This document shows, piece after piece, positions 208-63,000 of a stretch of DNA of 64,000 bases (position 1 is the first letter of the stretch; every line of letters begins with the position of its first letter). The position numbers and the translations under genes are program-made. The stretch is from positions 6,511 to 70,510 of the forward strand of contig JAHJKD010000049.1 in the NCBI GenBank assembly GCA_018822435.1, read 5' to 3'. Source of the stretch: Patescibacteria group bacterium (GTDB taxonomy: Bacteria > Patescibacteriota > Patescibacteriia > UBA9570 > JAHJKD01). The notes under the pieces were generated by a model. That model did not search any database. It saw only the letters and a list, made by a program, of their open reading frames with translations, and was not told the DNA's origin.

Positions 208-756
208 TTATAAGATAAACCAAGATTTAATGAAATAATAAATTCCTAATATATATTGAACATAATCTTTATATATTTTCTGTTCAAAACCGTCACAGGC
301 ATCATCAGCCCATAAACCAACTTTATCTAAATATGCCTGTTGTTCGTAATCAATAAAATCATCGTATAATTTATAATTCTCATCCGTATAAGCATAAGCA
401 TAGCCTTCTTTTATCAATAACTCATTTACAAAAACATCGTCCACATAAACATATCTTAATAAACGATTATATTTATCTCTATCCCCGGCTCCGGCATCAG
501 GTTCTAAAACTACATCTTTTCCTTCTAGTAAATCTTTTGTTCTTTGTGATGCTTCTTTACCGAAACACTCCTCATCACGATACGGATTCTGAACTTCAGG
601 CGTGTCTATTCCTAAAAACCTGACGCTTTCGATTGTCCCATCTATGTCAGCTTTAATTGTATCACCGTCGATTACTTCAACTACTTCATAAGCAAATAAG
701 GGCAGAGGGGCTGCCAAGAATACAAGCACAAATATTTTAAAGAAATATTTAGCCAA
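208..756 (-). CDS. Secreted thermonuclease (staphylococcal/micrococcal nuclease, SNase-like)
   Basis: Signal peptide then VIDGDT motif and Ca-binding D/E pattern typical of the SNc fold. Confidence 0.8.
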   Translation of the reverse strand: MAKYFFKIFVLVFLAAPLPLFAYEVVEVIDGDTIKADIDGTIESVRFLGIDTPEVQNPYRDEECFGKEASQRTKDLLEGKDVVLEPDAGAGDRDKYNRLLRYVYVDDVFVNELLIKEGYAYAYTDENYKLYDDFIDYEQQAYLDKVGLWADDACDGFEQKIYKDYVQYILGIYYFIKSWFIL

Positions 757-1544: not shown

Positions 1545-1910
1545 TTATTTTAGAAAATTCTTGATATTTTCAGCAACTATTTTTGGGGGGTTTTCATTTT
1601 TAAACCAGTAATCGCGCAGGCCAATCATCATTCCTTTTTGCTTGTATTCGTCAATGGCCATGCTAGATAAGGCAAATATAGGCACGTCTTTAGTGCGGTC
1701 GTCTTCCAGAACACGCTGGCCCATTTCAAAGCCGTTCATTTCCGGCATCATTATATCAGTGAGGATAATATCAGGTTTTATTTCGAGAACCTTTTCAACC
1801 ACGTCTTTAGGCGGGTATTCAAAATGGATGACTTCAAAACCGGCTTTTTCTAAAGCGGTTTTATACATAGCATAAAATCTAGGAGTGTCTTCAAAATATA
1901 GGATTTTCAT
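1545..1910 (-). CDS. Stand-alone response-regulator receiver domain (CheY-like)
   Basis: D-D-T...K receiver signature (DIILTDIMMPEMNG), 121 aa, no output domain. Confidence 0.8.
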   Translation of the reverse strand: MKILYFEDTPRFYAMYKTALEKAGFEVIHFEYPPKDVVEKVLEIKPDIILTDIMMPEMNGFEMGQRVLEDDRTKDVPIFALSSMAIDEYKQKGMMIGLRDYWFKNENPPKIVAENIKNFLK

Positions 1911-2094
1911 ATATGAATTCTACCAATTTTGCCCAAAGAAAGCCACCAACCAATTATAACCCCTCCATTGGCTGGTGGCTGGTGAAAGCCTCTGGCCAAG
2001 AATGGTAATTGGCAGTGGCTTTCCTTGTTTGTTGTTGACCCGTTTACGCTGTTTGTTTCAGAAGTCTCCGTCGTCATAGGCAGCTGTCCTCTTA

Positions 2095-2265
2095 TCCACG
2101 TGGATCGTGGCCGGCTCCGGAGGCTTGGCCGGCTCGCCCGTGTCCGCCTGGACAGCGGACTGATCCTCCATCTTCTGGGGGGCGGCCTGCAAAGAGACGC
2201 GCCCGGGCGACGCAAGGCACCCCTGCGGCGAGTGCCAAAGAAATCAGGCAAATCAGTAATTTCAT
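2095..2265 (-). CDS. Small secreted peptide (57 aa, MKLLICLISLALAAGVPC...), GC-rich; not in supplied ORF track
   Basis: ATG at 2263-2265 (minus) with AAGGA upstream; clean signal peptide; only protein-like frame in 1.91-2.27 kb; downstream hairpin 1945-1985. Confidence 0.25.
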
Positions 2266-2488
2266 GAGTTTTTTCCTTTCTTTTCTTTCCTCTGAGCCAA
2301 CAACACTTATAATTTCATATATTTAATGTTCTGTGCCAATTTTTAGGTTCCTCCATGCGAGGCGCGTTCCTTTGCTGACCGGCGGGTACAAGTAATATGA
2401 ATATTTACATATAAAAACTTGACATTAAATATGATTATTACTAAGCTATGTCGGAAAACTTAAAGCCCTTTAAGGAGGAAAACGGGAA

Positions 2489-2869
2489 ATGAAGAGAAGG
2501 TATTACGTATTGTTTGAGAATGAAGATGCGCGGGAACAAAAGGAATTGTTCATCAGCCGGCAGGAAGCGGCGGCAATCAAGTCCCTGGCCGTCCTGATGG
2601 ACAACCCGGCTTTCAACGGGGATGCGGAGGGCGTATTCGCCTACCTGTGCGGGTTTGTCTGGTTCCGCAAGTTCCATGGCCTGAAACCAGGCGAGGCCGT
2701 CCGGTTCCGCACGGGCCAGTCTGCCTACCACCCCCGGGAGGAGAACCAGGACGACGACATCATCCATGTCTGGACGCAGGAGTACTTCCTGGCCGGAAAC
2801 CGATGGATGCTGAGCCTGCTCATCAAGATCGAAGACGACGAGGACGTCGACGTAGTGGTGCAGGAGTAG
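2489..2869 (+). CDS. Hypothetical protein, GC-rich island gene A (126 aa, acidic C-terminus)
   Basis: AAGGAGG SD 8 nt upstream; about 60% GC CDS in AT-rich flanks; terminator follows. Confidence 0.6.
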   Translation: MKRRYYVLFENEDAREQKELFISRQEAAAIKSLAVLMDNPAFNGDAEGVFAYLCGFVWFRKFHGLKPGEAVRFRTGQSAYHPREENQDDDIIHVWTQEYFLAGNRWMLSLLIKIEDDEDVDVVVQE

Positions 2870-2888
2870 GCCGGCATGGCCGGTAAAA

Positions 2889-2930
2889 GGCCCTGGATAG
2901 CAAGAAGCTGTCCAGGGCCAAATTTTTTTC
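2889..2930 (+). terminator. Rho-independent terminator (GGCCCTGGA...TCCAGGGCC + T7)
   Basis: 9-bp GC stem, T-run. Confidence 0.7.
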
Positions 2931-2964
2931 TAAAAAATACAATAAATTGTCAATTGAAAAAGCC

Positions 2965-2996
2965 TTGACAAATTTATACTTACAGTGTAACTTGGC
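2965..2996 (+). promoter_or_regulatory. Sigma70-like promoter (TTGACA -35) for island gene B
   Basis: TTGACA at 2965-2970, TG-n-TAACTT-like -10 about 17 nt downstream; AT-rich. Confidence 0.3.
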
Positions 2997-3042
2997 GAAG
3001 ATTCTAAGGCCAATTTTTTAACCAACAAGGAGGGCACGAAAC

Positions 3043-3435
3043 ATGGCTGATTGGATTCTGAAGCACGTGATGGGCGAGAGCGAAGAGCAGAAACGATGGG
3101 AGATGGAGATGGCCGAGGACCTGGGCCTGGCTCTCCTGCACTTCGACTACACGGGCATGACCAAGGACAACGGCTCCCTGGTGTGGCGTTTCCTGCAGGA
3201 CTTCCCCCAGTTCTGCCAGGCCAATGGCGTCACCAGGATGGGCCGCCCCAAAGTCAAGTTCATCGACTGCCACAAGGTACCCAGGGATCAGCTTGAAGAT
3301 TCCCAGGGCGTGGTCTGGTACCTGGAAATCACGGTGAACGACAACCCGCAGCGGATGGAGATTACCCGCGTCGATCCGGACGCGCGGCAGGTACACCTGC
3401 CCGTGCATCACGATCTGGCCTGGTCGCCCACATAG
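3043..3435 (+). CDS. Hypothetical protein, GC-rich island gene B (130 aa)
   Basis: AAGGAGGG SD 7 nt upstream; about 58% GC; own terminator. Confidence 0.6.
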   Translation: MADWILKHVMGESEEQKRWEMEMAEDLGLALLHFDYTGMTKDNGSLVWRFLQDFPQFCQANGVTRMGRPKVKFIDCHKVPRDQLEDSQGVVWYLEITVNDNPQRMEITRVDPDARQVHLPVHHDLAWSPT

Positions 3436-3446
3436 GAGGAGCAAAA

Positions 3447-3488
3447 CCCCCCGACTTAGCAATGCTAAGCCGGGGGTGCTCTTTTTTA
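3447..3488 (+). terminator. Rho-independent terminator (CCCCCG..CGGGGG + T-run)
   Basis: Hairpin 3447-3476 then TTTTTT. Confidence 0.7.
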
Positions 3489-3499
3489 ATAGGTTTTTT

Positions 3500-4288
3500 T
3501 TACTTTGATTCTAAATTTTTAATCTCTTCTTTAAGTTCAATAATCTTCTTTTCCCGGCCCACCATGAGTTTGTTCATCTTATCGGATTGTTCTTTTTTGG
3601 CTTCCAACTCTTGCATTACAATTTCGCGCTGCTTCGCCTCTTTCTTTAACTCTATATTGGCTTTCTCTAAATCAGAAGTTGCATGACGAATATCTCCGGC
3701 CTGGCTTTCAATAAGCCTGGACCGGGCTTCTTGGCCCCGCGCATAAATAAGAACCACCAAAGATATAATGGCCATGCTTATTACAGTAAGCCAGGTTTCA
3801 TATGGTATATACGGCATATCAATGACTCGTATTGACTGAAGTATGGCTGCGGTAATCATAAAAGCGAATAATGCAAGGGTCCAATAAACGCCTTTTCTAT
3901 AACCCATTAATAAGAAAATTGCCGGGGGATATAAATAAATCCACAAGTTTCCCGTAGCAAAAAATCCGCCGGTCCCAAAATTATGAATAGACATTGCAGT
4001 AATCACAAAAGCTCCAATTTGAAAAGAAATCTCCATTTTTTTTGTAACCCGTAATATTATTAAGGCAGTCAGTAAAAGTATTATAAATGTAATTTCTAAG
4101 AAAGCTGGGTAATAATCTTTTATTTGCAGGTTTACAATGACATAATATGTGAAAATAATAATACCGAGAAAAGCGACGATATGAAAAAACCGAATACGGG
4201 AATAATTAATATCCGTACGTTTGAGCTCTATGCCAGATTGTAATATATTATCAATCCATTTCATGTTAATCATTATAACAAAAAACAA
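3500..4288 (-). CDS. Membrane sensor protein (5-6 TM) with C-terminal coiled coil ending in the G-R-E motif (KLMVGREKKIIELKEEI); no kinase domain
   Basis: TM helices plus Lys/Glu coiled coil; C-terminal motif shared with ORFs 20822-22120 and 22185-23591. Confidence 0.55.
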   Translation of the reverse strand: MFFVIMINMKWIDNILQSGIELKRTDINYSRIRFFHIVAFLGIIIFTYYVIVNLQIKDYYPAFLEITFIILLLTALIILRVTKKMEISFQIGAFVITAMSIHNFGTGGFFATGNLWIYLYPPAIFLLMGYRKGVYWTLALFAFMITAAILQSIRVIDMPYIPYETWLTVISMAIISLVVLIYARGQEARSRLIESQAGDIRHATSDLEKANIELKKEAKQREIVMQELEAKKEQSDKMNKLMVGREKKIIELKEEIKNLESK

Positions 4289-4329: not shown

Positions 4330-4791
4330 TTATTTCATAAAACCTTTGCCCATGCCTTTGCCCATGCCGGGTCCGTGGCCCATGCCCATGCCGTCAGGCA
4401 GTCCCAGTTCCTCGCGGATTTCCTGGGCGCCATCGAAATCGCCTTCTTGCATAAGTTTATGCATTTCAGCGAAGCGGTCAAAATTGCCTTCATTCACATA
4501 ATCCGTGATTTGAGGGCGGGAATCGATGATCTCTTTCCATTTGGCGTAATCGCCATCAGTCAGAGCGTTTTCCATCTCATCCTTTTGCGCCTGCATTTCT
4601 TCGCGATGCTGGCCCATTTCGGCCTGTACTTCCTGCTTTTGCTCGTCAGTAAGCTTGTCCCATACTGACGAGATGCCAGGGCCGGCCGCTTTGGTGGCGG
4701 CTGTGGCCGTCATCAGGCCGACAACGCCGACCGCGGCGACCGCGGCGACTAAGGAAAATGCGGTCAGGCTTTTTTTAACCTTTTGCTTCAT
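4330..4791 (-). CDS. Periplasmic CpxP/Spy-like (LTxxQ) protein with Gly/Met-rich tail
   Basis: Signal peptide; LTDEQKQ repeat motif; MGMGHGPGMGKGMGKG tail. Confidence 0.45.
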   Translation of the reverse strand: MKQKVKKSLTAFSLVAAVAAVGVVGLMTATAATKAAGPGISSVWDKLTDEQKQEVQAEMGQHREEMQAQKDEMENALTDGDYAKWKEIIDSRPQITDYVNEGNFDRFAEMHKLMQEGDFDGAQEIREELGLPDGMGMGHGPGMGKGMGKGFMK

Positions 4792-4832
4792 AAATAAATT
4801 ATTTAATTATTAAGATGACTTGGCCAGTCACT

Positions 4833-5612
4833 TTAATAATACGAGGGTTGATATTCTTTTATTTCAATATTTAATTTTTTACCTCTTGGATTAGGTTGTT
4901 CAGGATGGAAAGGTTTGTTCTTTCCTTTATCCCAAGGCCTGATGCCAAAGGCTTCTATCTCGTCTTCATCAATCCTTTCGCCAATAACCCTTATTTTTCC
5001 GCCTTGTAATAATTCTAATTCAGGTGGAACCATTGTTTCTCTAGAAAACATTACTTCCCACTCATCTCCGTTCCAATCAATTAAAATCAGGCTATCAGAC
5101 GATACGCTACCGATAATACCGGCAATTGTGCCGGCGTCAGGCTGCATCCAGATCATATGCGGGACAGGGACAACACGATGGTAGCCAGGCAAATGCTGCT
5201 CTAATTTATTCTCAATATATTGTGTCAGGCCAGTATAATAAAATAAAGCCGCCAATAATATTGTGCCAATCAAGATGACTATAACAATAAAATGCCATTT
5301 AATTTTATAGCCTTGCTTAGTTTTTCTGAATTCAACAAATGCCAGGATGGCCAGAGCCAGAGATAATATCAGCCAGAAATAAGGCAAAGCCCTCAGCATA
5401 TTGAGTACCCGTCCCGGCATAGCCATAAATAAACGAAAATCCTGCTGAACGGTAATTTCCCAACTTAGAGCAATAGCTAAAGCAATTATTGGAATACCAA
5501 TTATAAGAAGAGACCATAATAAAACTTCGCTAAAAGTATACCGCCATTTTGGCCTAGGCTTAATGTCGTTTTTCTTGATTTGTTCGTTGATCTTGTCTGA
5601 TATATTGGTCAT
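4833..5612 (-). CDS. Membrane protein translationally coupled to the ECF sigma factor (putative anti-sigma/regulator)
   Basis: 4-nt overlap with sigma gene; 4 TM helices + extracytoplasmic domain. Confidence 0.4.
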   Translation of the reverse strand: MTNISDKINEQIKKNDIKPRPKWRYTFSEVLLWSLLIIGIPIIALAIALSWEITVQQDFRLFMAMPGRVLNMLRALPYFWLILSLALAILAFVEFRKTKQGYKIKWHFIVIVILIGTILLAALFYYTGLTQYIENKLEQHLPGYHRVVPVPHMIWMQPDAGTIAGIIGSVSSDSLILIDWNGDEWEVMFSRETMVPPELELLQGGKIRVIGERIDEDEIEAFGIRPWDKGKNKPFHPEQPNPRGKKLNIEIKEYQPSYY

Positions 5613-6178
5613 AAGTTTGTTCCCTCCATTTCCTTTTTCAATTGTTTCTTGGCCCGGTTGATTAATGTTCCGACTGTATTTACTGGTTTTTTTATAATGT
5701 CTGAGATTTCTTCATATGAGTATTCATTGAGATATTTAAGCTGCAGGACTTCCCTATATTTGAAATCCAGCTTATTTATTGCCTGCTGGACTTCCTCTTT
5801 AAGAGCTTTTTCATCCAGTTTTTCTTTTATGTCAAAATCATCTTTCAAAAGATAAGCAATTTCATCATCCTCCAGATCTGGCATGCCCATTTCTTTCTTG
5901 TGCTTGCGCCAATAAGAGATAGTTTCATTGTGAGCAATAGAAAATAACCAGGAGGAAAATTTCCGCTTCTGGTCAAAGGCATTGAGGTTTTGGTAGGCTT
6001 TGAGGAATATTTCCTGGGCAATGTCTTCCGCTTCTTCGCGGCGGACACCGGAAATCCGAACTATATAGTTGATTATTTTGCTTTCGTATTTTTTTACCAA
6101 ATCAGTGTATATAGCCGGGTTTTCCAGAGTCATCTGAACCAAAACAATATCCTCATTTGAGCCTTCTTTTTCAGGCAT
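5609..6178 (-). CDS. ECF-type RNA polymerase sigma-70 factor
   Basis: Region 2 (IAQEIFLKAY, SWLFSIAHN) and region 4 HTH (YSYEEISDIIKKPVNTVGTLINRAKKQL). Confidence 0.8.
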   Translation of the reverse strand: MPEKEGSNEDIVLVQMTLENPAIYTDLVKKYESKIINYIVRISGVRREEAEDIAQEIFLKAYQNLNAFDQKRKFSSWLFSIAHNETISYWRKHKKEMGMPDLEDDEIAYLLKDDFDIKEKLDEKALKEEVQQAINKLDFKYREVLQLKYLNEYSYEEISDIIKKPVNTVGTLINRAKKQLKKEMEGTNL

Positions 6179-6266: not shown

Positions 6267-6656
6267 TCACAGATTTTTTCTTTTAGAATTTATTAATCTT
6301 TTAAATTGGAGGCTGCGAGTGCCGAAATTTAGTAATAAGCCAATTTCCATATTAAAGGCCTCAAGATAATTGATTGCCTGGGCATAATGGACTTTTTCCA
6401 ATTCTGAAACTGCCTTTAATTCGACCAAAACTTTCCCTTCCACCATCATATCAACTCTTCTACGGCCCATCATGATGCCATCGTAAAAAATAGGCATCTC
6501 TTTTTCACGAATATGGCTAATATTATTTTTCTGGAACTCTCGAGCCAAACATCTTTGATAAATTGATTCTTGGTATCCACTACCAAGACTACTATGCACA
6601 TTCATAGCACAACCAATAATTTTACCAGTTAAATCTTTATATTTATATTTTTCCAT
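6267..6656 (-). CDS. GxxExxY family protein (PD-(D/E)XK nuclease superfamily)
   Basis: GYQESIY motif, D...E.K core (VDMMVEGKVLVELK), 129 aa. Confidence 0.7.
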   Translation of the reverse strand: MEKYKYKDLTGKIIGCAMNVHSSLGSGYQESIYQRCLAREFQKNNISHIREKEMPIFYDGIMMGRRRVDMMVEGKVLVELKAVSELEKVHYAQAINYLEAFNMEIGLLLNFGTRSLQFKRLINSKRKNL

Positions 6657-6677
6657 TTTTTATTATTTAAAAAAATA

Positions 6678-6739
6678 AATCTGCGTAATCTATGGTTCCA
6701 TCTGCGAAATCATTCCAATCTGCGTAATCTATGGTTCCA
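6678..6739. repeat. 23-nt perfect tandem direct repeat x2 (AATCTGCGTAATCTATGGTTCCA) with a partial third copy; 3' arm of the inverted repeat
   Basis: Copies at 6678-6700 and 6717-6739. Confidence 0.8.
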
Positions 6740-6791
6740 AACCACAAAAAAACAGAGGCGCCGAGCCTCTATTTCCTGATTTGATATTAAA

Positions 6792-8267
6792 TTATTTACT
6801 TTGTGATGTCAACCATTTATATAAGTATTCGGTGGCCCGGACATCATCTTCGTTGTAATTGATAATATCCTGCAAGACTTGCTTGTCCCCTGTTTCCAGC
6901 CATTTCTCATACCAGAAAATTGACTGGGCACCGCCGGCCTTGGGATGGCGCCATTTGAAGTCTAAAAATTTTGACTTGGCAATATCTTTAACAGAATAAA
7001 AATACAAAGGAAAAATTACACTGTCTAAAACAATTTCATATAAATCTACCAGACGTGAATGAAATTTTTCAAAAGCGTCATTACGGCCGTATTCGTCAGC
7101 CATTTTTCTGGTGCGGATTTTTTCATACGGGGCATAATGATAAACCAGATAATCTTCGGGCAAAGTTTCCAGCCAGTCAATAAAATCTTCCCACATGGCT
7201 TTTTCATCTTCTGGTTTTTCCGCCAGGAAATAAATAAAATATTTTTCTTCTTTTCCATCGGGCACAACATTGGCATGTTCGTATAATAATTCCATTTTAG
7301 GATCGCCGGAAACCCAAAAACCGAACATATATTCCACCTGCAACAACGGATCGCCTTCTATATCAAAAAATAATTTTAATTTTGCGTCTGGAATTTTTGG
7401 ATTTTTCAACCATTTAAGATCGCCGTCCTGCAAGGCTTGGGCTTGTATCTTTGCGCGCTCTAATATTTTTCGGCTGGCATGCGGTATCTTGGGTAGTGAG
7501 CCGACATCCATTTTTGCTGCCTGCTCAACTGTTTTTATCCCTAGCTCTCTTAGTTTTTCGTGAGCGCGAGAATCAAGTTTGTATATTAAGGCAATGTCGT
7601 TTTCTTTTTCCGCGTCTTTGACGCATTTATCAAACCAGGGGGAATTTTTATAGGTGCTGGTTAATTTTAACGGCGGTTTTTTGCCTCTGATTATTTCAAG
7701 TATTTCCTCTATTTGGGCTTTTGTTTTTATAATAAGGCTTTTTGTGATCTTAACCTCTTTTTGAATACCATCTTTATTGATAATAGCGGCAGTGGCAGGC
7801 AGCTTGCCCTGAACTTTCTCCAAAATCAGAGAATACAGAACAAGCTGTTGGCGCTGTTCTTTTTTTATGTCTTTTGATGATTTAATATCTATGGCAATAT
7901 ATCCGCCATCTTCCCGCTTTAAGAAATCGGGCCGGCCGCGATAAATAATGCCCTTTTCTTCATACTGGATTTCACCCTGATAGATCAGGTCAGCGCCTTC
8001 TTGCATCAGCTTTTTTGTGTGCTGGAAGGCAGGCAAAGGTGAAGTTTCTTTCACTTCTCTAAATTTTAAATTTTTTACATATTCTTCTTCATACAACACA
8101 CCCTGCTCAAGAAGCTTTTCCATGAGTTCAGGCATTTCACCTTTTTCTTTTTTTTCAGTGTAGATATCGTGCCAGAGCCAATGAGGAGCCGTGCCGTATT
8201 TAAAAAATAGCTGAGGAGTAAAAATAATTTTTTTTGTCTGAATTTTCATATTTTTATTATAACACAT
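6792..8267 (-). CDS. RecB-family nuclease (TM0106-like): N-terminal PD-(D/E)XK domain + C-terminal RNase H-like exonuclease domain
   Basis: IAIDIKSSK nuclease motif; FFDIEG ... YHYAPYE ... NEDDVRAT motifs. Confidence 0.6.
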   Translation of the reverse strand: MCYNKNMKIQTKKIIFTPQLFFKYGTAPHWLWHDIYTEKKEKGEMPELMEKLLEQGVLYEEEYVKNLKFREVKETSPLPAFQHTKKLMQEGADLIYQGEIQYEEKGIIYRGRPDFLKREDGGYIAIDIKSSKDIKKEQRQQLVLYSLILEKVQGKLPATAAIINKDGIQKEVKITKSLIIKTKAQIEEILEIIRGKKPPLKLTSTYKNSPWFDKCVKDAEKENDIALIYKLDSRAHEKLRELGIKTVEQAAKMDVGSLPKIPHASRKILERAKIQAQALQDGDLKWLKNPKIPDAKLKLFFDIEGDPLLQVEYMFGFWVSGDPKMELLYEHANVVPDGKEEKYFIYFLAEKPEDEKAMWEDFIDWLETLPEDYLVYHYAPYEKIRTRKMADEYGRNDAFEKFHSRLVDLYEIVLDSVIFPLYFYSVKDIAKSKFLDFKWRHPKAGGAQSIFWYEKWLETGDKQVLQDIINYNEDDVRATEYLYKWLTSQSK

Positions 8268-14253: not shown

Positions 14254-15189
14254 TTATAATTTCTTCAGGGTGATCCTGGTTCCGTTAAAATCCAGACAGG
14301 CGCGCTTGTCCCATTTCCAAAAATTCAGAGGGGCCGGGACTTTGCCAGCGCCACCGGGCACGTCGATGACATAGAGCGGGCAGGCCAGGCCGGACAAGCG
14401 GCTCCGAAGCTTGGTCATGATCTCGGTTTCTTTCTTGAAATCAACGATAAAATGTTCAGCACCCGAGACGTAATCACAGCGAAAAATATAATAGGGCTTG
14501 ATGCCGATCTCGATCAGGCCGGAAAAAAGGTCGTAAAGAGTCTTGACGTTGTCATTGACTCCCTTTAGGAAGACGGATTGCGATAAAATCATGGTGACAT
14601 GAGGCTGGAGGCGGCGGATGGCCCGCACTGTGGCCGGATTGATCTCGGCCGGGTGCTCGAAGTGGACCATGAGATAGAGCGGCTGGCGTTTGACTGCATC
14701 CAGGGCGGCAAGCACTTTTTTGTCCGCCTGGCGCGGATCAGACACGGGCAAGCGCGTGCCCACGCGCAGGACCTTGATCTGGGGCAGGCGGGAAAAGCGG
14801 GTCAGGGCCTTTTTTAAAAGAATGGGAACGGTCAGAGGATCTCCCCCGGAAATTATCAGCTCTTTTATTTCCGGATGTTTCTTGAGGTAGGCCACGATAT
14901 TGTCCAGGTCCTTGTCTGTAATGACGCCTTTTTTGAGATCAGAAACCTTGCGCCGGCGCGTGCAAAAACGGCAATAGGCGGCGCAGTTCATGGTCAGGAG
15001 CACTAGGGCGCGGTTGCCGTATTTATGCACCAGGCCGCGGGTGGCGGTATGTTCCTCTTCCATAAGAGGATCAGCGGTGGTCATCTTTTCGTCCCAGCCC
15101 TCTTTTTTTGAAGGCACAAACTCGCGATGCACGGCCGGGCAGGTCTTGATGATGGTTTCTAAATGGGGTGATAAGCGCTTGCTGAGCAT
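14254..15189 (-). CDS. KamA-family radical SAM aminomutase (lysine 2,3-aminomutase / EpmB-like), GC-rich
   Basis: CAAYCRFCTRR (CxxxCxxC), ISGGDPL, VHFEHPAE, FLKGVNDN, GIKPYYIFRCDYVSGAEHF, IDVPGGAGKVP motifs. Confidence 0.8.
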   Translation of the reverse strand: MLSKRLSPHLETIIKTCPAVHREFVPSKKEGWDEKMTTADPLMEEEHTATRGLVHKYGNRALVLLTMNCAAYCRFCTRRRKVSDLKKGVITDKDLDNIVAYLKKHPEIKELIISGGDPLTVPILLKKALTRFSRLPQIKVLRVGTRLPVSDPRQADKKVLAALDAVKRQPLYLMVHFEHPAEINPATVRAIRRLQPHVTMILSQSVFLKGVNDNVKTLYDLFSGLIEIGIKPYYIFRCDYVSGAEHFIVDFKKETEIMTKLRSRLSGLACPLYVIDVPGGAGKVPAPLNFWKWDKRACLDFNGTRITLKKL

Positions 15190-15202
15190 TTTTTATTTAA
15201 AA

Positions 15203-16237
15203 TTATTTTTTTATGCAATTATATTTGATACCATAGCGGTGGCAGGCTGATTTCAGGATAGCGGCGATCATGCCGTCATAGGCCAGACCGGCCGCGCGGG
15301 CAGCGCGGGGAAAGCGCGAATTTTCACGCGGGTCTGGAATTATCCCGGGCGGGCAATTGATCTCAATCACATAGGGTGTGCTCTTCTTGAGCCGCAGGTC
15401 GATCCGCGCCCAGTCGGCCATTTCCAACGCCTGGAAAGTGTGGCGGCAGACCTGGCTGATCTTCTTGGCCAGGGCCGGGCTGATCTTGGCCGGGCAGACC
15501 AGGGGGTCGGCCTCGTGCTGGGGATCGTCATAGACCCATTTGGCCTCGTAGTGGTCGAATTTGGGCATGTGGGCAGGCAGAGCATCGAAAGTCACTTCTA
15601 TAATGGGCAGGACGCGAGGCGGCGTGCCCAGCAGGGCGACCGTGAACTCGCGACCCTCTATATATTCCTCGATAATGACGCTCTGGCCGTGCTGGCGGAT
15701 GATGTCATCCGCTACCCTGACCAGGTCGGCATGGTTGCCAACCAGATTGGCGCTGCCGATGCCCTTGCTCGAGCCTTCGCCGAGGGGCTTGACGATGGCC
15801 GGAAAAAAATCAACATTATCGGGCCGTATTTCCGCAGCGGCCCTAGCCGTGAACCAGCGCGGCGTCGGGATCTTGTGGGCCAGGAGGACTTCCTTGGCCT
15901 TAGCCTTGTGTAGGCCGAGGGCGTAGCCCAGCGGACTGGGGCCGGTATAGGGGATCTCGAGCATTTCCAGCATGGCCGGGATCTGGGCCTCGCGATCCAG
16001 GCCGTGCATGCCTTCGGCTATATTGAATACCAGGTCGAGCTGCTGCCTCAGGTCATGAAGCTTCTTATAGGCAGAATGATCGGCTTCGATGCAAAAAACA
16101 GTATGGCCGAGCCCTTGCAAGGCGTCGTAAATGCCGGCAATGGTGGCTGGTTCGTCAAATTCCGCTTCCATAATATATTGAGGGTCGTCCATGTCCGGTT
16201 TGACGTGGCGGACGTTGTAGGTGAAGCCGATATTCAT
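15203..16237 (-). CDS. D-alanine--D-alanine ligase-family ATP-grasp enzyme, GC-rich (ATG at 16237; track uses upstream TTG at 16258)
   Basis: Ddl-like N-domain, AIVKPLGEGSSKGI, IEEYIEGREFTV, RIDLRL...VIEINCPPG motifs. Confidence 0.75.
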   Translation of the reverse strand: MNIGFTYNVRHVKPDMDDPQYIMEAEFDEPATIAGIYDALQGLGHTVFCIEADHSAYKKLHDLRQQLDLVFNIAEGMHGLDREAQIPAMLEMLEIPYTGPSPLGYALGLHKAKAKEVLLAHKIPTPRWFTARAAAEIRPDNVDFFPAIVKPLGEGSSKGIGSANLVGNHADLVRVADDIIRQHGQSVIIEEYIEGREFTVALLGTPPRVLPIIEVTFDALPAHMPKFDHYEAKWVYDDPQHEADPLVCPAKISPALAKKISQVCRHTFQALEMADWARIDLRLKKSTPYVIEINCPPGIIPDPRENSRFPRAARAAGLAYDGMIAAILKSACHRYGIKYNCIKK

Positions 16238-16399
16238 AAAATTAAAAAAACCCAGCAAAGGGGCTCACTTTTAATGGGTCTTAAATTGAGGTTTTTAGCT
16301 TTAGCGGCTGTTGTCAGGCAGTCCGGAGGATGATCATCGTCATCCTTTAATATTTCTGTTTCCATTTTTTTATTCAAATATATTCTACTCCGGTTTTTT

Positions 16400-16850
16400 C
16401 CGGTGTCAATATCTGCCGGAAACAGGCTGTGTATAAATTAGAATAATACCGGTCGCTGCCTGATGGGATAGAACCACCAGACAGCGACCAGGATCCTGAT
16501 GCGGGGGAGAGAGGCCATTGGTCTGAAAGAAATCCATGGCTAGTTTCCCCTGCTCTGTACAGCCTCCGAGGCCATCCACCGCTTTCGCTGGGTTGGGCTC
16601 ATCCGGTTGTACTGGGCTCGTTGGTTACAGGAGAGCCTCAGATAGAACCTACGGAAAGGGTCAATCTGTGGACAGTTGGGATCATCTGTCCCGGAAGGTA
16701 CGGTTCGTTCATTTGGCTTGCTGACCTTGGTCATGAAACACCTCCTCATGGCGGCCGGTTGAACGGGCCTTTTTATCTTACCCCCATGGCAAAACAAAAA
16801 GCTTCTTACCCCGATAATGCAGAATAAGAAGCTTTTTGTCTTCTTGCCTT
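16400..16850 (+). ncRNA. Candidate structured noncoding RNA in a GC-rich island (family not identified)
   Basis: No credible ORF; extended -10 TGtTATAAA at 16430-16438; nested GC-rich hairpins such as GGUCGCUG..CAGCGACC; ends at a 13-bp hairpin. Confidence 0.25.
16805..16850. terminator. Bidirectional terminator-like perfect 13-bp hairpin (AAAAAGCTTCTTA ...16-nt loop... TAAGAAGCTTTTT)
   Basis: Seen directly; U-runs on both strands. Confidence 0.6.
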
Positions 16851-17032
16851 TCGATAAACTCAAGGCCATATCTTCCTCCAAGGGGGGCAGGACTTACCAC
16901 CCGGCTTATCCGGGTTGGCGAGCAGTCAACGGGCCTGATCCCTCGTGCTTCTCTTGATATTTTTGAATTGCAATGAACTATAAATATTCTAACAAATATT
17001 TCTTACCTTCGCAACGATTTTCTTGGGGATAA

Positions 17033-40709: not shown

Positions 40710-40736
40710 TTAGCACTCTAGTGTCAAGAGTGCTAA
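40710..40736 (-). promoter_or_regulatory. CIRCE operator (TTAGCACTC-N9-GAGTGCTAA)
   Basis: Perfect 9-N9-9 inverted repeat matching the CIRCE consensus. Confidence 0.9.
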
Positions 40737-40994
40737 ATTAGGAACACGAAGATGCAAAATATCGAACATCTCGAAGGTAAAGACTTTTATATACAAATAT
40801 CAGTTTTAATACTATTGAGTGCGTCCAGATGATGGCATGAAGGTTTTCTTCGTGGTTTTCGCCATTTCGTGTTTTCGTGATCCAAATACCAACATCCCCT
40901 CTTAGAAGGCCTATATAAGTATAGAAATTCAGTTGAAGGGAGGAAAAGGAGCATGTGATAATCATTCTTTTACTGATTCCCTTCTGATGCGGAG

Positions 40995-41333
40995 TTATAC
41001 GTAGATAACGCGCATGCGTTTCCACTCGCTGGGCAATTCCGTTCGATTTCTGACCCAGGTAATCAGGTACCCGCCTCTTTTGTGGGAATAGAACGCTATT
41101 CCCTGGGGAGGCTGGTCCTGGGCCGCCGCTTGCAGGGCAGCCGGGACACAAGGATCAATTCTTTCGGGCAGCTTAATGAGAGCGGCCCGTTCGGGAATCA
41201 TCAAATTTTTAAATTCCCAGATAGCTTGTTCATTGAGCTCGAATCCGGCGGCGTTGCCACGGAGAATAGGCTCAATGATCATAATGCGAGGCATCCCTTT
41301 CGGGAACCAGCAACGGAAATACTTTTCGCTCAT
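40995..41333 (-). CDS. Hypothetical protein in GC-rich islet (112 aa)
   Basis: AAAGGAG SD 9 nt upstream of ATG; about 58% GC. Confidence 0.45.
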   Translation of the reverse strand: MSEKYFRCWFPKGMPRIMIIEPILRGNAAGFELNEQAIWEFKNLMIPERAALIKLPERIDPCVPAALQAAAQDQPPQGIAFYSHKRGGYLITWVRNRTELPSEWKRMRVIYV

Positions 41334-41468
41334 TTCTCAAGCTCCTTTTCCTCGAAACTAAACGCTTTTCCCCTAATAAGCGCTAAAAATAATGTACAAA
41401 AAATGGGGTGTTTATATTACACCTTTTATGTGAAATAATCAATATTAAATTTTAAGACTAAAAATTTG

Positions 41469-41540
41469 CACCGCCTAGGGGAATCGAACCCCTGTTGCAT
41501 GGATGAGAACCATGTGTCCTAGCCACTAGACGAAGGCGGC
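41469..41540 (-). tRNA. tRNA-Glu (anticodon CUC)
   Basis: Manual fold: acceptor GCCGCCU/AGGCGGU, loop UUCUCAU, T-loop UUCGAUU; resembles canonical tRNA-Glu. Confidence 0.8.
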
Positions 41541-41576
41541 AAAATTTAGGCCCCGATCTTTTCAGGGCCTATTATT

Positions 41577-41861
41577 TTAGAGTTTTTTGTTGATCATGTC
41601 AATCAGCATTTCCATGTTTTTTATTACCCCGTCACCCCAATTTGCCATGGGCCTGTTCTGGAGCAGACCGAATGTTTCATGCACGACCTCAGACAGTTCT
41701 TTGCGTAAATTATCATCTTCCACGTTTACTAAATTCCGGTCAAAATCTTTGAGAATGATGGTGACGTTTTCGACTTGCATCTCGTCAAAGTCAACGCCAT
41801 ATTCCATTTTCTCAAGAATATCTTCAATTTTATTTTTTTGTGCTTCCCAATCAGCTGCCAT
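41577..41861 (-). CDS. Hypothetical small acidic protein (94 aa)
   Basis: ORF only. Confidence 0.35.
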   Translation of the reverse strand: MAADWEAQKNKIEDILEKMEYGVDFDEMQVENVTIILKDFDRNLVNVEDDNLRKELSEVVHETFGLLQNRPMANWGDGVIKNMEMLIDMINKKL

Positions 41862-41871
41862 ATATTTTATT

Positions 41872-42885
41872 TTATTTTATTTGTTTTGCTATTTCTACGG
41901 CCTGATCAACCAAGCGAACAGAGTATCCCCATTCATTGTCATACCAGGAAATGATCTTTGCCAGATTTCCACCTGTGACCTTGGTTAAGGACAAATCAAC
42001 AATAGAAGAAGCCGGATTGCCAATGATGTCATGAGAAACAATCGGGTCTTCCGTGCATTCAAGGATGCCTTTTAAGTACCCTTTTTCGGCCGTTTTCAGA
42101 GCTTCGTTAATTTCTTCGGCTGTAGCGTCTTTCTTTAATAAAATGGTCATATCTGATAATGATCCGCAAGGCGTGGGGACCCTGACAGCCATGCCATCGA
42201 AAATTCCTTCTAAATCAGGAATAGTCAGGCCGACTGCTTTGGCCGCGCCGGTTTCCGTGGGAACCATGTTTAAGGCAGCGGCACGGGCACGACGGTAATC
42301 TTTATGCGTTCCATCAACCAGGTTCTGATCCGCAGTATAAGAATGAATAGTGGTCATAAAAGCTTTTTCAACACCAAAGTTATCATTGATAACACGCATT
42401 ACTGGAGCCATACAGTTGGTGGTGCAAGAAGCATTGGAAATAATCAGTTCATCATCTTTCATGTCTTCCTGGTTCACACCAAGAACATAAGTACCGACCG
42501 GGTCGTCCCCTTTGGCCGGAGCAGAAATGATCACGCGCTTGGCACCGGCTTTAAGATGTTTGGAAGCTTGTTCTTTGGTGCGAAAAACGCCAGTGCATTC
42601 CAAAGCGACGTCAACCTCCAGATCTTTCCAGGGAAGATTTTCCGGGTCCTTCTCAGAAAGCTTTAAATATTCTTTGCCGTCGACAATAAGCTTGTCATCT
42701 CCCCTTGCTTCAACCGTGCCCGGATAAACGCCGTAAACAGAATCATACTTAAATAGATAAGCCGACATTTCTACGGGTGAAAGTCCATTGATAGCAACGA
42801 TTTCAATATCATCTCTTTTGGCAGCAGATTTGAATGCGGATTGGCCGATGCGACCGAAACCATTGATGGCAATTTTGATAGGCAT
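41872..42885 (-). CDS. gap: Glyceraldehyde-3-phosphate dehydrogenase (start at MPIKIAINGFGRIG; track start is an upstream GTG)
   Basis: NGFGRIG Rossmann motif, catalytic SNASCTTNC. Confidence 0.9.
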   Translation of the reverse strand: MPIKIAINGFGRIGQSAFKSAAKRDDIEIVAINGLSPVEMSAYLFKYDSVYGVYPGTVEARGDDKLIVDGKEYLKLSEKDPENLPWKDLEVDVALECTGVFRTKEQASKHLKAGAKRVIISAPAKGDDPVGTYVLGVNQEDMKDDELIISNASCTTNCMAPVMRVINDNFGVEKAFMTTIHSYTADQNLVDGTHKDYRRARAAALNMVPTETGAAKAVGLTIPDLEGIFDGMAVRVPTPCGSLSDMTILLKKDATAEEINEALKTAEKGYLKGILECTEDPIVSHDIIGNPASSIVDLSLTKVTGGNLAKIISWYDNEWGYSVRLVDQAVEIAKQIK

Positions 42886-42895
42886 AATTTTTTTA

Positions 42896-42927
42896 TGAGA
42901 CACGATAAATCGCGTCTTTACTTAAAT
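42896..42927 (-). promoter_or_regulatory. Conserved leader hairpin family A, copy 3 (upstream of gap)
   Basis: TGAGACACGATAAATCGCGTCTTTACTTAAAT, 10 nt from gap ATG. Confidence 0.6.
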
Positions 42928-62304: not shown

Positions 62305-62400
62305 TTTCTTATAAATGTATTATAAAGGACGCGCTCAAAAGGCACAAGGACCTAAAATATAAAACATCAGGTAAAATAGCCTGAGAATGGGAGTTTGATC

Positions 62401-63000
62401 ATGTTCCGTAAGATATTGATTATGATAAAGTCCTTAGCAGCTTTGTTGGGCTTTAGTCGGAAAGGAAATGCCGATTACAGCCTTACCCTCGAAGACATTA
62501 TGCCGATGGCTTTGCGGGACGATCTGTTCGCAGATTACAATGTGGCCATGGGCAAGGAGCAGACCAAGTACCCGCACGATCAGATGAATTACGATCGTGA
62601 CGAGTTTGAGCAGGCCTGTGATGATCCTGAGATCATCAAGGCGGTCTTCAGGGTCAATGATGACGCCGCCGGATTCGCATTCCTGACCCGGCCCGTAGCG
62701 ACTAGCAAGGCGCCGTGGGTCTCGCCAACGTTCAACTGGAATGCGCAATCCGGTCTGTACTACATCACCATCCTGATGATGCGCAAGAACTACCGGGGTG
62801 CCGGCCATGTCATCGGATTCATGGAGCATCTCTACAAGGAACTGACCACGGCCTATCCGGGCCTTGTGGTCGGATTCGATGTTCCTACGAATGGGAAGGA
62901 ATGGCTGTACAAACTGATCTTCCGTCGAATTGGTAAACGGTTCGGAGTGAGGGTCACGCCTATCGGGAGCCAGAAGTATTTCCGGATGGAACAACTTTAA
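62401..63000 (+). CDS. GNAT-like acetyltransferase-fold protein in GC-rich islet (start ATG 62401; track uses TTG 62395)
   Basis: GGGAG SD 7 nt upstream; RKNYRGAGHVIGFMEHLYKEL resembles GNAT motif A; about 58% GC after an AT-rich first 25 codons. Confidence 0.45.
   Translation: MFRKILIMIKSLAALLGFSRKGNADYSLTLEDIMPMALRDDLFADYNVAMGKEQTKYPHDQMNYDRDEFEQACDDPEIIKAVFRVNDDAAGFAFLTRPVATSKAPWVSPTFNWNAQSGLYYITILMMRKNYRGAGHVIGFMEHLYKELTTAYPGLVVGFDVPTNGKEWLYKLIFRRIGKRFGVRVTPIGSQKYFRMEQL

Follow-up and report, generated by a model that had tools for sequence, protein, structure and literature searches.

Patescibacteria have tiny genomes, in which most of the strain-specific genes are unexplained. Orphan immunity genes of polymorphic toxin systems encode small, extremely diverse cytoplasmic alpha/beta proteins, about 100-150 aa in length; these genes vary among strains, often stand alone or in short arrays, and often deviate in base composition. 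Integron cassettes, which usually lack a promoter, end in attC and adjoin an integrase gene and attI. Phage morons, such as gene 15 of HK97, are defined by their own promoter, their own terminator and a deviant GC content (Cumby, Davidson & Maxwell 2012, PMC3594210), and are taken to be horizontally acquired, independently expressed add-ons. In Patescibacteria, horizontal transfer, islands included, is documented, and a survey of such transfer describes genes of deviant composition, most of them hypothetical, in streamlined CPR genomes, with most of the exchange inferred to occur within Patescibacteria (PMC12455944).

Here we describe a GC-rich islet of about 1.6 kb (1907-3490) in an AT-rich Patescibacteria chromosome, which was analyzed within a window of 64,000 nucleotides. 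The islet probably consists of three moron-like, horizontally acquired accessory cassettes that are transcribed independently. Going by their sequence features, the cassettes resemble phage morons in having one small gene, a sigma-70-type promoter, an intrinsic terminator and a GC content unlike that of the neighbors, and are read in the same way. Unlike morons, however, they lie side by side, three in a row, in the chromosome between native operons rather than in a prophage, and their proteins have no homologues in phage collections (the single match in phage, plasmid and viral collections is at chance level, E 0.02). The two plus-strand products of the islet, predicted to be small cytoplasmic alpha/beta proteins encoded by stand-alone, compositionally deviant genes, would also be similar to orphan immunity proteins, but the surroundings of the islet contain neither a toxin gene nor a secretion system or known immunity domain, and no donor toxin locus with homologues was found. 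As with integron cassettes, the units are short, contain a single gene, mostly of unknown function, and are exchanged between strains; in contrast to integron cassettes, they carry their own promoters, share no common 3' repeat (in a repeat comparison that used no attC model) and have no integrase nearby. Beyond the survey of transfer cited above (PMC12455944), the present locus adds the promoter/Shine-Dalgarno/terminator build, the contrast to native genes devoid of a Shine-Dalgarno sequence and the family of the 126-aa protein described below.

The islet, already described as GC-rich in the first-pass annotation, has a GC content of 58-67% in the coding blocks compared to 36-38% in the flanking genes; the GC-rich blocks are 170-400 nt each and are separated by native-like spacers of 31-35% GC, the mean for native intergenic DNA being 32%. 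The two plus-strand ORFs of that annotation exist and encode acidic soluble proteins of 126 aa (2489-2869, pI 4.9) and 130 aa (3043-3435, pI 5.3). Judged by coding-like codon-position GC (GC1/2/3 of.61/.32/.80 and.63/.34/.83, respectively) and, in the case of the 126-aa protein, also by homologues, both are genuine genes. Their GC3 values are 3.9 and 4.2 sd above those of the other 62 ORFs in the window (mean.425, sd.098, maximum.71).

The promoter of the 126-aa gene (2419-2447, plus strand) consists of TTGACA (2419-2424), a 17-nt spacer and TAAGCT, and that of the 130-aa gene (2965-2993, plus strand) consists of TTGACA (2965-2970), 17 nt and TAACTT; both came from a motif search and were missed by a generic promoter scan because the -10 hexamers are weak. 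The pattern TTGACA-N17-TAnnnT is present 6 times in the window versus 0.64 expected (about 9-fold enrichment) and is also found upstream of tRNA-Glu. In both genes, the Shine-Dalgarno sequence AAGGAGG (2472-2478 and 3027-3033, plus strand) is spaced 9-10 nt from the ATG; the leader of the 126-aa gene is unstructured, its fold being not more stable than those of its shuffles. The full AAGGAGG motif is associated with only these two genes in the window, and 51 of the 64 window genes are devoid of any Shine-Dalgarno-like motif. The 126-aa gene is followed by a terminator block (2870-2930, plus strand) that encompasses two hairpins, a small one at 2870-2884 and a GC-rich one of 13 bp at 2889-2919, as well as a T run (RNA fold of -38.5 kcal/mol, z -6.25). 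The terminator of the 130-aa gene (3448-3486, plus strand; hairpin 3448-3476 with a T run; -30.5 kcal/mol, z -4.6) is bidirectional and is common to this gene and the convergent native gene 3500-4264.

The plan of the cassettes comprises TTGACA-N17-TAnnnT in a native-like AT-rich spacer, an unstructured leader of 35-45 nt, a GC-rich coding block and a hairpin that is an intrinsic terminator or terminator-like. GC3 is.80-.85 across the three cassettes, and the two on the plus strand have the canonical AAGGAGG, which native genes essentially lack. The TTGACA-type promoter, strong Shine-Dalgarno sequence and terminator that had been assigned to each plus-strand ORF are borne out by the motif enrichment, by AAGGAGG and by the hairpins (z of about -6.3 and -4.6), and the description of the genes as compact, stand-alone and self-contained holds, given that promoter, ribosome-binding site and terminator are separate for each of them and that they are compositionally foreign orphans.

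A word-indexed protein search returned only self matches; the exhaustive search then yielded two homologues of the 126-aa protein, P0004 and P0005 (E 7e-11 and 2.4e-10), and profile search added P0006 and P0007 as relatives. The family, defined in the present analysis, includes five members (P0001 and P0004-P0007); the alignment features conserved residues W58-F59, H63, K66-P67, Y99 and W106, and the 126-aa protein fits it over the full length. As indicated by a dN/dS of 0.16 between P0006 and P0007, the family is under purifying selection at the protein level. All four relatives are encoded in Patescibacteria-like contigs by GC-rich genes within AT-rich DNA, and the cassette architecture is repeated at the homologous loci L002, L003 and L006, which are also Patescibacteria-like. 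P0004 and P0005, which come from one sample, are 43% identical at the protein level and have flanks of 127 nt and ~180 nt that are 100% identical, and L003 and L006 are 100% identical over ~5 kb save for a ~1.1-kb tract centered on the 109/108-aa cassette. By these comparisons, the loci of the family in another lineage are replaced allele by allele via recombination. Replacement between identical flanks fits a conflict-type role; it is seen in that other lineage and not at the present locus. As far as the recovered members indicate, the family is tiny, fast-diverging and known from Patescibacteria-like genomes only.

Under the interpretation of the islet as acquired cassettes, the coding blocks together with the ribosome-binding sites and terminators would derive from a GC-rich, Shine-Dalgarno-using gene pool or from a cassette pool circulating among Patescibacteria. 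The cassettes, as their signals suggest, would be expressed constitutively and strongly, giving rise to two small acidic cytoplasmic proteins with a predicted alpha/beta structure and one putative small secreted protein or lipoprotein that is frame-broken in the assembly. It counts against this explanation that no donor lineage was found in ~15 billion proteins and that all known family members come from Patescibacteria-like genomes, which would be unusual if the genes had recently been imported from an ordinary GC-rich bacterium. Furthermore, GC3 is ~.8 in all five members (5/5) despite saturation of synonymous sites, which fits long residence with maintained GC equally well as repeated import.

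The strongest alternative, less probable but to be taken seriously, is that the genes are native, have long been resident and make up a special expression class without recent transfer, in which the GC-rich codons, leader and Shine-Dalgarno sequence are kept by selection or biased gene conversion. This possibility is compatible with the native type of the promoters, the native composition of the spacers and the confinement of the 126-aa family to Patescibacteria-like genomes, as well as with the persistence of the high GC3 through saturated synonymous divergence, also between alleles with identical flanks, and with the presence in L006 of a KhpA-type KH-domain gene that is built like the cassettes and has a GC3 of.84. 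However, the classic highly expressed genes of the window, namely DnaK (.44), the putative GAPDH (41872-42903;.42) and the tRNA synthetases, have ordinary GC3 values (.39-.44) and lack a Shine-Dalgarno site, the 40-point gap in GC3 is limited to a few small genes and would call for a maintaining mechanism that is not known, and housekeeping-type genes are documented as horizontally transferred into Patescibacteria. An expression effect as the cause of the high GC3 was considered separately and rejected, the GC3 of DnaK and the putative GAPDH being ordinary.

The first-pass annotation had likened the islet to small defense, toxin-immunity or anti-defense cassettes, and a specific version of this idea is a two-gene toxin-immunity, toxin-antitoxin or defense/anti-defense module made up of the 126-aa and 130-aa genes. 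The two genes are indeed adjacent, on the same strand, small, similar in size, acidic and alike in composition, and the loci of the 126-aa family elsewhere are hypervariable, as is often the case for conflict genes. Nevertheless, such a module is quite unlikely. As the interval between them contains a strong terminator as well as the promoter of the second gene, the two genes are, by these signals, separate transcription units and not an operon. There is also no conserved pairing: the exhaustive search of 1.84 billion representative proteins gave only self matches for the 130-aa protein, and because this protein has no homologue, the pair co-occurs nowhere else, the relatives of the 126-aa protein being found without it, next to another paralogue of the family and a PNP_UDP_1 gene. 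Such absence of co-occurrence is what the first-pass annotation itself had named as refuting its reading. The three ORFs and the five-member profile have no match in Pfam, NCBIfam, PHROGs, PADLOC or PDB sequences, in agreement with the earlier observation that no family was recognizable; in PADLOC-DB, none of the three ORFs matched any family at E up to 1, and no toxin or antitoxin domain is recognized in Pfam, NCBIfam, PADLOC or PDB sequences. The absence of PADLOC, PHROG and Pfam matches and the separate transcription units speak against the proposed cassette type. The structure models are poor (pLDDT 59 and 49), and searches by fold gave no match.

A match of the 130-aa protein to P0003, a 957-aa eukaryotic retrotransposon polyprotein (E 1.6e-16), was rejected because a single 33-residue stretch (15/33 identical, 32 bits) was counted six times, P0003 containing six copies of the matched segment. 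The similarity of the 130-aa protein to the 126-aa family is weak (BLASTP E 8.5; HMM 3.4 bits; hhalign probability 0.9%, E 0.064; 28/2000 in a shuffle test, P 0.014), with an alignment that is in register and a similar order of predicted secondary structure elements, and the two proteins are possibly very distant paralogues.

The third gene of the islet, delineated by three-frame translation and sliding codon-position GC, is a frame-broken gene on the minus strand (2058-2265) for a small secreted protein or lipoprotein. The 57-aa signal-peptide ORF noted previously (2092-2265, minus strand) stands in part: the signal peptide (MKLLICLISLALAAG..., beginning at 2265) is real, but the rest is in the wrong frame. 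The codon-position GC of the 57-aa frame is aberrant (.76/.64/.52), and from ~2220 to 2058 GC3 periodicity (.70/.50/.85) is seen in another frame, which ends in ...DKRTAAYDDGDF and a stop codon at 2058-2060. Based on these patterns, the 57-aa ORF is a frame chimera that follows the true coding frame only in its first 15-27 codons (the signal peptide), with a frame shift by one base between 2223 and 2177. A one-base deletion, either in the 4-base run 2220-2223 or in the 6-base run 2177-2182, produces a 68-aa ORF; repair at the former site makes a lipobox, LAAGC, continuous with the GC3-supported frame, and repair at the latter gives a VARA cleavage site. The 57-aa product is not called by NCBI or any other gene caller on record, and the repaired 68-aa protein has no Pfam match. 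At the 3' side of this gene, a long imperfect hairpin is followed by UUUCUUUGGG (1934-2027, minus strand), a terminator-like arrangement (RNA fold of 1911-2060, minus strand, -45.5 kcal/mol, z -2.7; inverted repeat I1).

This truly broken frame, the opposite-strand shadow ORFs of 108 and 152 aa and the general tendency of GC-rich DNA to yield long ORFs in several frames could be taken to imply that the ORFs arose by chance as open frames within non-coding GC-rich DNA, such as a structured RNA or a decayed fragment. This is very improbable, given the strong three-base GC periodicity in just the frames that follow ribosome-binding sites and the purifying selection on homologues of the 126-aa protein, which comes close to refuting the idea for that gene. 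Rfam is empty over the region even at a permissive threshold, with nothing at the gathering score and, at E up to 5, chance-level hairpin matches on the terminators; the non-coding RNA reading was rejected on the lack of Rfam matches and the coding-like codon-position GC.

The islet is stable, the same arrangement being found in 6/6 contigs with flanking genes (NCBI MAGs and Logan assemblies among them), and its proteins have three NCBI MAG protein accessions. The metagenome-assembled source and the sharp jump in composition might bring to mind an assembly chimera or contamination of the MAG with GC-rich DNA; this can be practically dismissed in view of this recurrence in all six contigs, the short length of the GC-rich blocks between native-like spacers and the same GC-rich/AT-rich mosaic in unrelated samples. 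The neighborhood includes genes for a receiver, DUF1294, TspO, SNase, a membrane protein and an ECF sigma factor; DnaK, tRNA synthetases and tRNAs are encoded elsewhere in the window. The stand-alone receiver domain (1545-1910, minus strand; Response_reg E 3.5e-17) adjoins the islet as originally annotated; it opens a native AT-rich block of four genes and is only a positional neighbor.

The islet has neither an integrase, transposase or phage gene nor a tRNA or flanking direct repeat to mark it; att-like repeats were not found around it, and the called genes within ~6 kb on either side include neither phage genes nor an integrase. The 262-aa neighbor used as a query in GTDB genomes revealed neither synteny nor an empty site, the receiver has only distant paralogues in metagenomes (<=49% identical), and exact look-up of both flanking proteins returned the same 6 contigs and no others. 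No island-free relative that would show the insertion directly was found, and this, together with the lack of a mobile-element mark, weighs against the explanation by acquired cassettes.

As it stands, the islet is an orphan accessory islet without an assigned function. A tentative guess is that its products might be strain-specific binding proteins of the immunity or anti-defense type, each acting singly in conflicts with phages, hosts or competitors rather than as part of a two-gene toxin-antitoxin module. It is more doubtful still that the cassettes represent a distinct class, present in some Patescibacteria, of self-contained expression units (promoter of native type, leader with a canonical Shine-Dalgarno sequence, coding block of GC3 near.8 and terminator) that strains swap allele by allele and that stay GC-rich for so long that synonymous sites become saturated. 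If such a class exists, either an unsampled GC-rich reservoir, a host bacterium or a mobile element, would feed the episymbionts, or a dedicated mechanism would maintain the composition; in the case of a reservoir, the cassettes would record the host of the symbiont, and the small acidic proteins would be candidate factors of interaction with hosts or phages.

The islet is a clean example of foreign-looking genes wired into a Patescibacteria genome, in which a promoter of the native type is paired with a ribosome-binding site of a kind that goes unused in the native genes. It also reveals a new five-member protein family whose loci are hot spots of recombination in natural populations. Should the GC-rich composition be the mark of a donor, cassettes of this kind could help to tie uncultured episymbionts to their hosts; if, conversely, the composition is maintained in place, the islet raises the question of composition control in bacteria.

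The window is a segment of the chromosome of an uncultured Patescibacteria bacterium and also carries DnaK, several tRNA synthetases and three tRNAs; accordingly, it is neither a phage nor a plasmid. The islet at positions 1907-3490 is a real, neatly built group of orphan accessory genes. Its GC-richness comes in blocks: the three coding blocks have 58-67% GC, the internal spacers have 31-35%, matching native intergenic DNA (32% on average), and the flanking native genes have 36-38%. All six contigs with this locus that were found by flanking-protein look-up are alike; contig JAHJES010000025.1 (MAG GCA_018825215.1) is identical to the first 8,869 bases of the window, and three NCBI MAG protein accessions exist for each of the two larger islet proteins. 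The gene for the adjacent receiver domain opens a native AT-rich block (receiver, DUF1294, TspO, SNase) and is a positional neighbour only.

The two plus-strand ORFs, of 126 aa (2489-2869) and 130 aa (3043-3435), are real genes, with GC contents at codon positions 1, 2 and 3 of.61/.32/.80 and.63/.34/.83, respectively; the long ORFs antisense to them (108 and 152 aa) were rejected as shadows. Relative to the other 62 ORFs of the window (mean GC3.425, sd.098, maximum.71), the two genes have GC3 z-scores of +3.9 and +4.2. The GC3 of DnaK (.44) and of the putative GAPDH (41872-42903;.42) is ordinary, and hence the high values in the islet are not a simple expression effect. Both proteins are small, acidic (pI 4.9 and 5.3) and soluble, with a predicted alpha/beta structure.

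The TTGACA-type promoter, strong Shine-Dalgarno sequence and terminator that the first-pass annotation assigned to each of these genes are all present in the sequence. The promoters (2419-2447 and 2965-2993, plus strand) consist of TTGACA, a 17-nt spacer and TAnnnT, a pattern that a motif search of the whole window finds 6 times against 0.64 expected; one further copy precedes tRNA-Glu, so that the motif represents the organism's own promoter type. A generic promoter scan missed both because the -10 hexamers are weak. Strong intrinsic terminators close both genes (z of -6.3 for the 126-aa gene and -4.6 for the 130-aa gene) so that, each having its own promoter, they form separate transcription units. 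The most telling contrast between the islet genes and the host is the ribosome-binding site: in both genes, AAGGAGG lies 9-10 nt upstream of the ATG in an unstructured leader, whereas 51 of the 64 genes surveyed have no Shine-Dalgarno-like motif and the full 7-mer is found in these two alone. Across the window, the 20 nt upstream of native genes are 48% A and 10% G, and TATAAT-like hexamers end 3-14 nt before the start codon in 14 of the 64 genes, which suggests that native mRNAs may be leaderless or have very short leaders.

A window-wide scan for a Shine-Dalgarno motif with a start codon, the count of which leaves out in-frame internal and shadow-frame matches, yields one further clear case, a 64-aa GC-rich ORF (16540-16734, minus strand; ribosome-binding site GAGGAGG) behind a SAM riboswitch (16865-16963, 47.9 bits). 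Next in this minus-strand locus (14254-16963) is a TTGACA-N16-TAGAAT promoter at around 16380-16408, and beyond it lie the genes of an ATP-grasp ligase (Dala_Dala_lig_C; 15203-16258) and of a KamA-like radical SAM enzyme (14254-15189). The genes of this locus are GC-rich (GC3.64-.71) and may constitute a small-peptide modification module.

Several other regions of the window merit mention. At 4330-6178 (minus strand), a 189-aa ECF sigma factor gene overlaps that of a 259-aa membrane protein and is followed by a 153-aa signal-peptide protein with weak Spy/CpxP-like and Metal_resist-like matches (GC3.61, GC-richer than its neighbours); these genes look like an envelope-stress module. A 201-aa GC-rich ORF (62395-63000, plus strand; GC3.67) preceded at about 100 nt by a TTGACA...TATAAA promoter has no Pfam match and may be another foreign-looking orphan cassette. 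At 6267-8267 (minus strand), a PDDEXK_3 protein (129 aa) adjoins a 491-aa protein with Cas4-like PD-(D/E)XK, DUF2779 and RNase_H_2 domains; the window showed no CRISPR array. About 1.1 kb beside tRNA-Glu (40717-41871, 42% GC) is devoid of a convincing native-type ORF and matches no Rfam family at gathering score.

The minus-strand ORF of the islet (2092-2265), first annotated as a 57-aa signal-peptide protein, stands in part: it begins with a convincing signal peptide (MKLLICLISLALAAG...), but the 57-aa reading is a mis-read, with the GC3 periodicity (.70/.50/.85) from about 2220 down to 2058 sitting in a different frame that ends ...DKRTAAYDDGDF and a stop codon. A one-base deletion gives a 68-aa ORF, with a lipobox (LAAGC) if the base is removed from the 4-base run at 2220-2223, or a VARA cleavage site if it is removed from the 6-base run at 2177-2182. 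This gene is called by no caller on record, NCBI included, and the frame shift may mark a genuine pseudogene, vary within the population or be an error of the assembly.

As the first-pass annotation anticipated, the islet proteins match no recognised family in Pfam, NCBIfam, PHROGs, PADLOC or PDB sequences, nor anything among phages, plasmids and IMG/VR, and self matches were all that a word-indexed search across 5.8 billion proteins gave. Among 1.84 billion representatives, an exhaustive search with HMMER detected two proteins related to the 126-aa one, P0004 and P0005 (both 126 aa; 33-34% identity, E about 1e-10); P0006 (109 aa) and P0007 (108 aa) came to light through a profile search. The whole family thus comprises five clusters at 90% identity, and a scan of 185,579 species-representative genomes recovered only the contig that carries P0007. 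Invariant residues in the alignment include W58-F59, H63, K66-P67, Y99 and W106, and dN/dS between P0006 and P0007 is about 0.16, indicating purifying selection. The same searches, the exhaustive one included, found no relative of the 130-aa protein; its match to a eukaryotic retrotransposon polyprotein was discarded as a single 33-residue stretch counted six times. The 130-aa protein may be a very distant paralogue of its neighbour, given a weak similarity to the 126-aa family (hhalign E 0.064, shuffle P 0.014) with an in-register alignment and similar predicted secondary structure.

The relatives reside on contigs (L002-L008) that resemble another Patescibacteria lineage, one being MAG GCA_043821615.1, and show the same mosaic of AT-rich native genes (SNase, Cyt-b5 membrane protein, Mur ligase; GC3.34-.42) among GC-rich stand-alone genes (GC3.72-.87), most with a TTGAC(A/T) promoter and all with a purine-rich ribosome-binding site. 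Further members of this class are a PNP_UDP_1 phosphorylase and a protein with a KhpA-type KH domain (L006 11133-11372, plus strand; Pfam E 6e-22, GC3.84 in an AT-rich genome; TTGACA promoter and GAAGGAGG ribosome-binding site); the class is accordingly not confined to orphans. P0004 and P0005 are two alleles of one cassette in a single metagenome (L002 1-778, L005 1-757, L003 5341-6110), with 43% protein identity and saturated synonymous sites. The cassette bodies are only about 55-60% identical and the flanks 100% identical, over 127 nt upstream, running through the -35 hexamer, and about 180 nt from the stop codon on, so that one break point directly follows the -35 hexamer and the other coincides with the stop codon. 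Likewise, the strains of L003 and L006, each from a different sample, share about 5 kb at 100% identity, interrupted only by a tract of roughly 1.1 kb that has the 109/108-aa cassette at its centre. From these two comparisons, the family loci in this lineage have been repeatedly replaced by recombination.

The 108/109-aa and 126-aa paralogous cassettes there end alike, with ...EA at the C terminus and about 60 nt of GC-rich 3' UTR (GCGCCTCCCCnCCAATGGACTCGCCCACCATGCAC..ACTGCGCAACGGGC; L003 4352-4420 and 5920-5990, L006 3787-3850), a shared ending that could be a recombination or RNA element and is absent from the window's cassettes. In the leaders of P0004, P0006 and P0007, a hairpin of sequence AGCACAUGCG(U)UGUGCU with a U run behind it lies a short distance downstream of the -10 hexamer (L002 about 150-180, L003 about 3945-3975, L006 about 3385-3415); it looks like an attenuator and is absent from the window's leaders. 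Both lineages have a gene for a secreted SNase-type nuclease (window 208-756, minus strand; L003 1-534; L008 5890-6513; 44% protein identity) within 0.3-1.2 kb of the GC-rich cassettes; this proximity may be chance or point to a variable region common to both.

The proposal that the islet is a defence or toxin-immunity pair finds no support and fails the check that the first-pass annotation set for it, as the two genes co-occur nowhere else, form no operon and match no defence or toxin model. Fold searches for both proteins were empty, and the single-sequence structure models (pLDDT 59 and 49) were too poor for searching. A doubtful guess, drawn only from orphan status, strong stand-alone expression signals and allele turnover, is that they might be strain-specific binding proteins in conflict with phages, hosts or competitors.

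The cassettes resemble phage morons in having their own promoter, one small gene, their own terminator and deviant composition (PMC3594210), but are located on the chromosome with no phage genes nearby. Given a GC3 gap of 40 points and ribosome-binding sites of an alien type, horizontal acquisition is, with fair confidence, the simplest reading, and transfer into Patescibacteria is documented (PMC12455944). The rival view, that the composition is maintained in place and not kept up by incoming alleles, remains alive: searches of about 15 billion proteins yielded no donor, and in all five family members, which sit in AT-rich genomes, GC3 stays at.72-.80 although synonymous divergence is saturated. 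The alternatives are a continuing influx of alleles from an unsampled GC-rich pool and maintenance of the composition in place; this persistent GC-richness of the 126-aa family is the islet's one genuinely unexplained feature.
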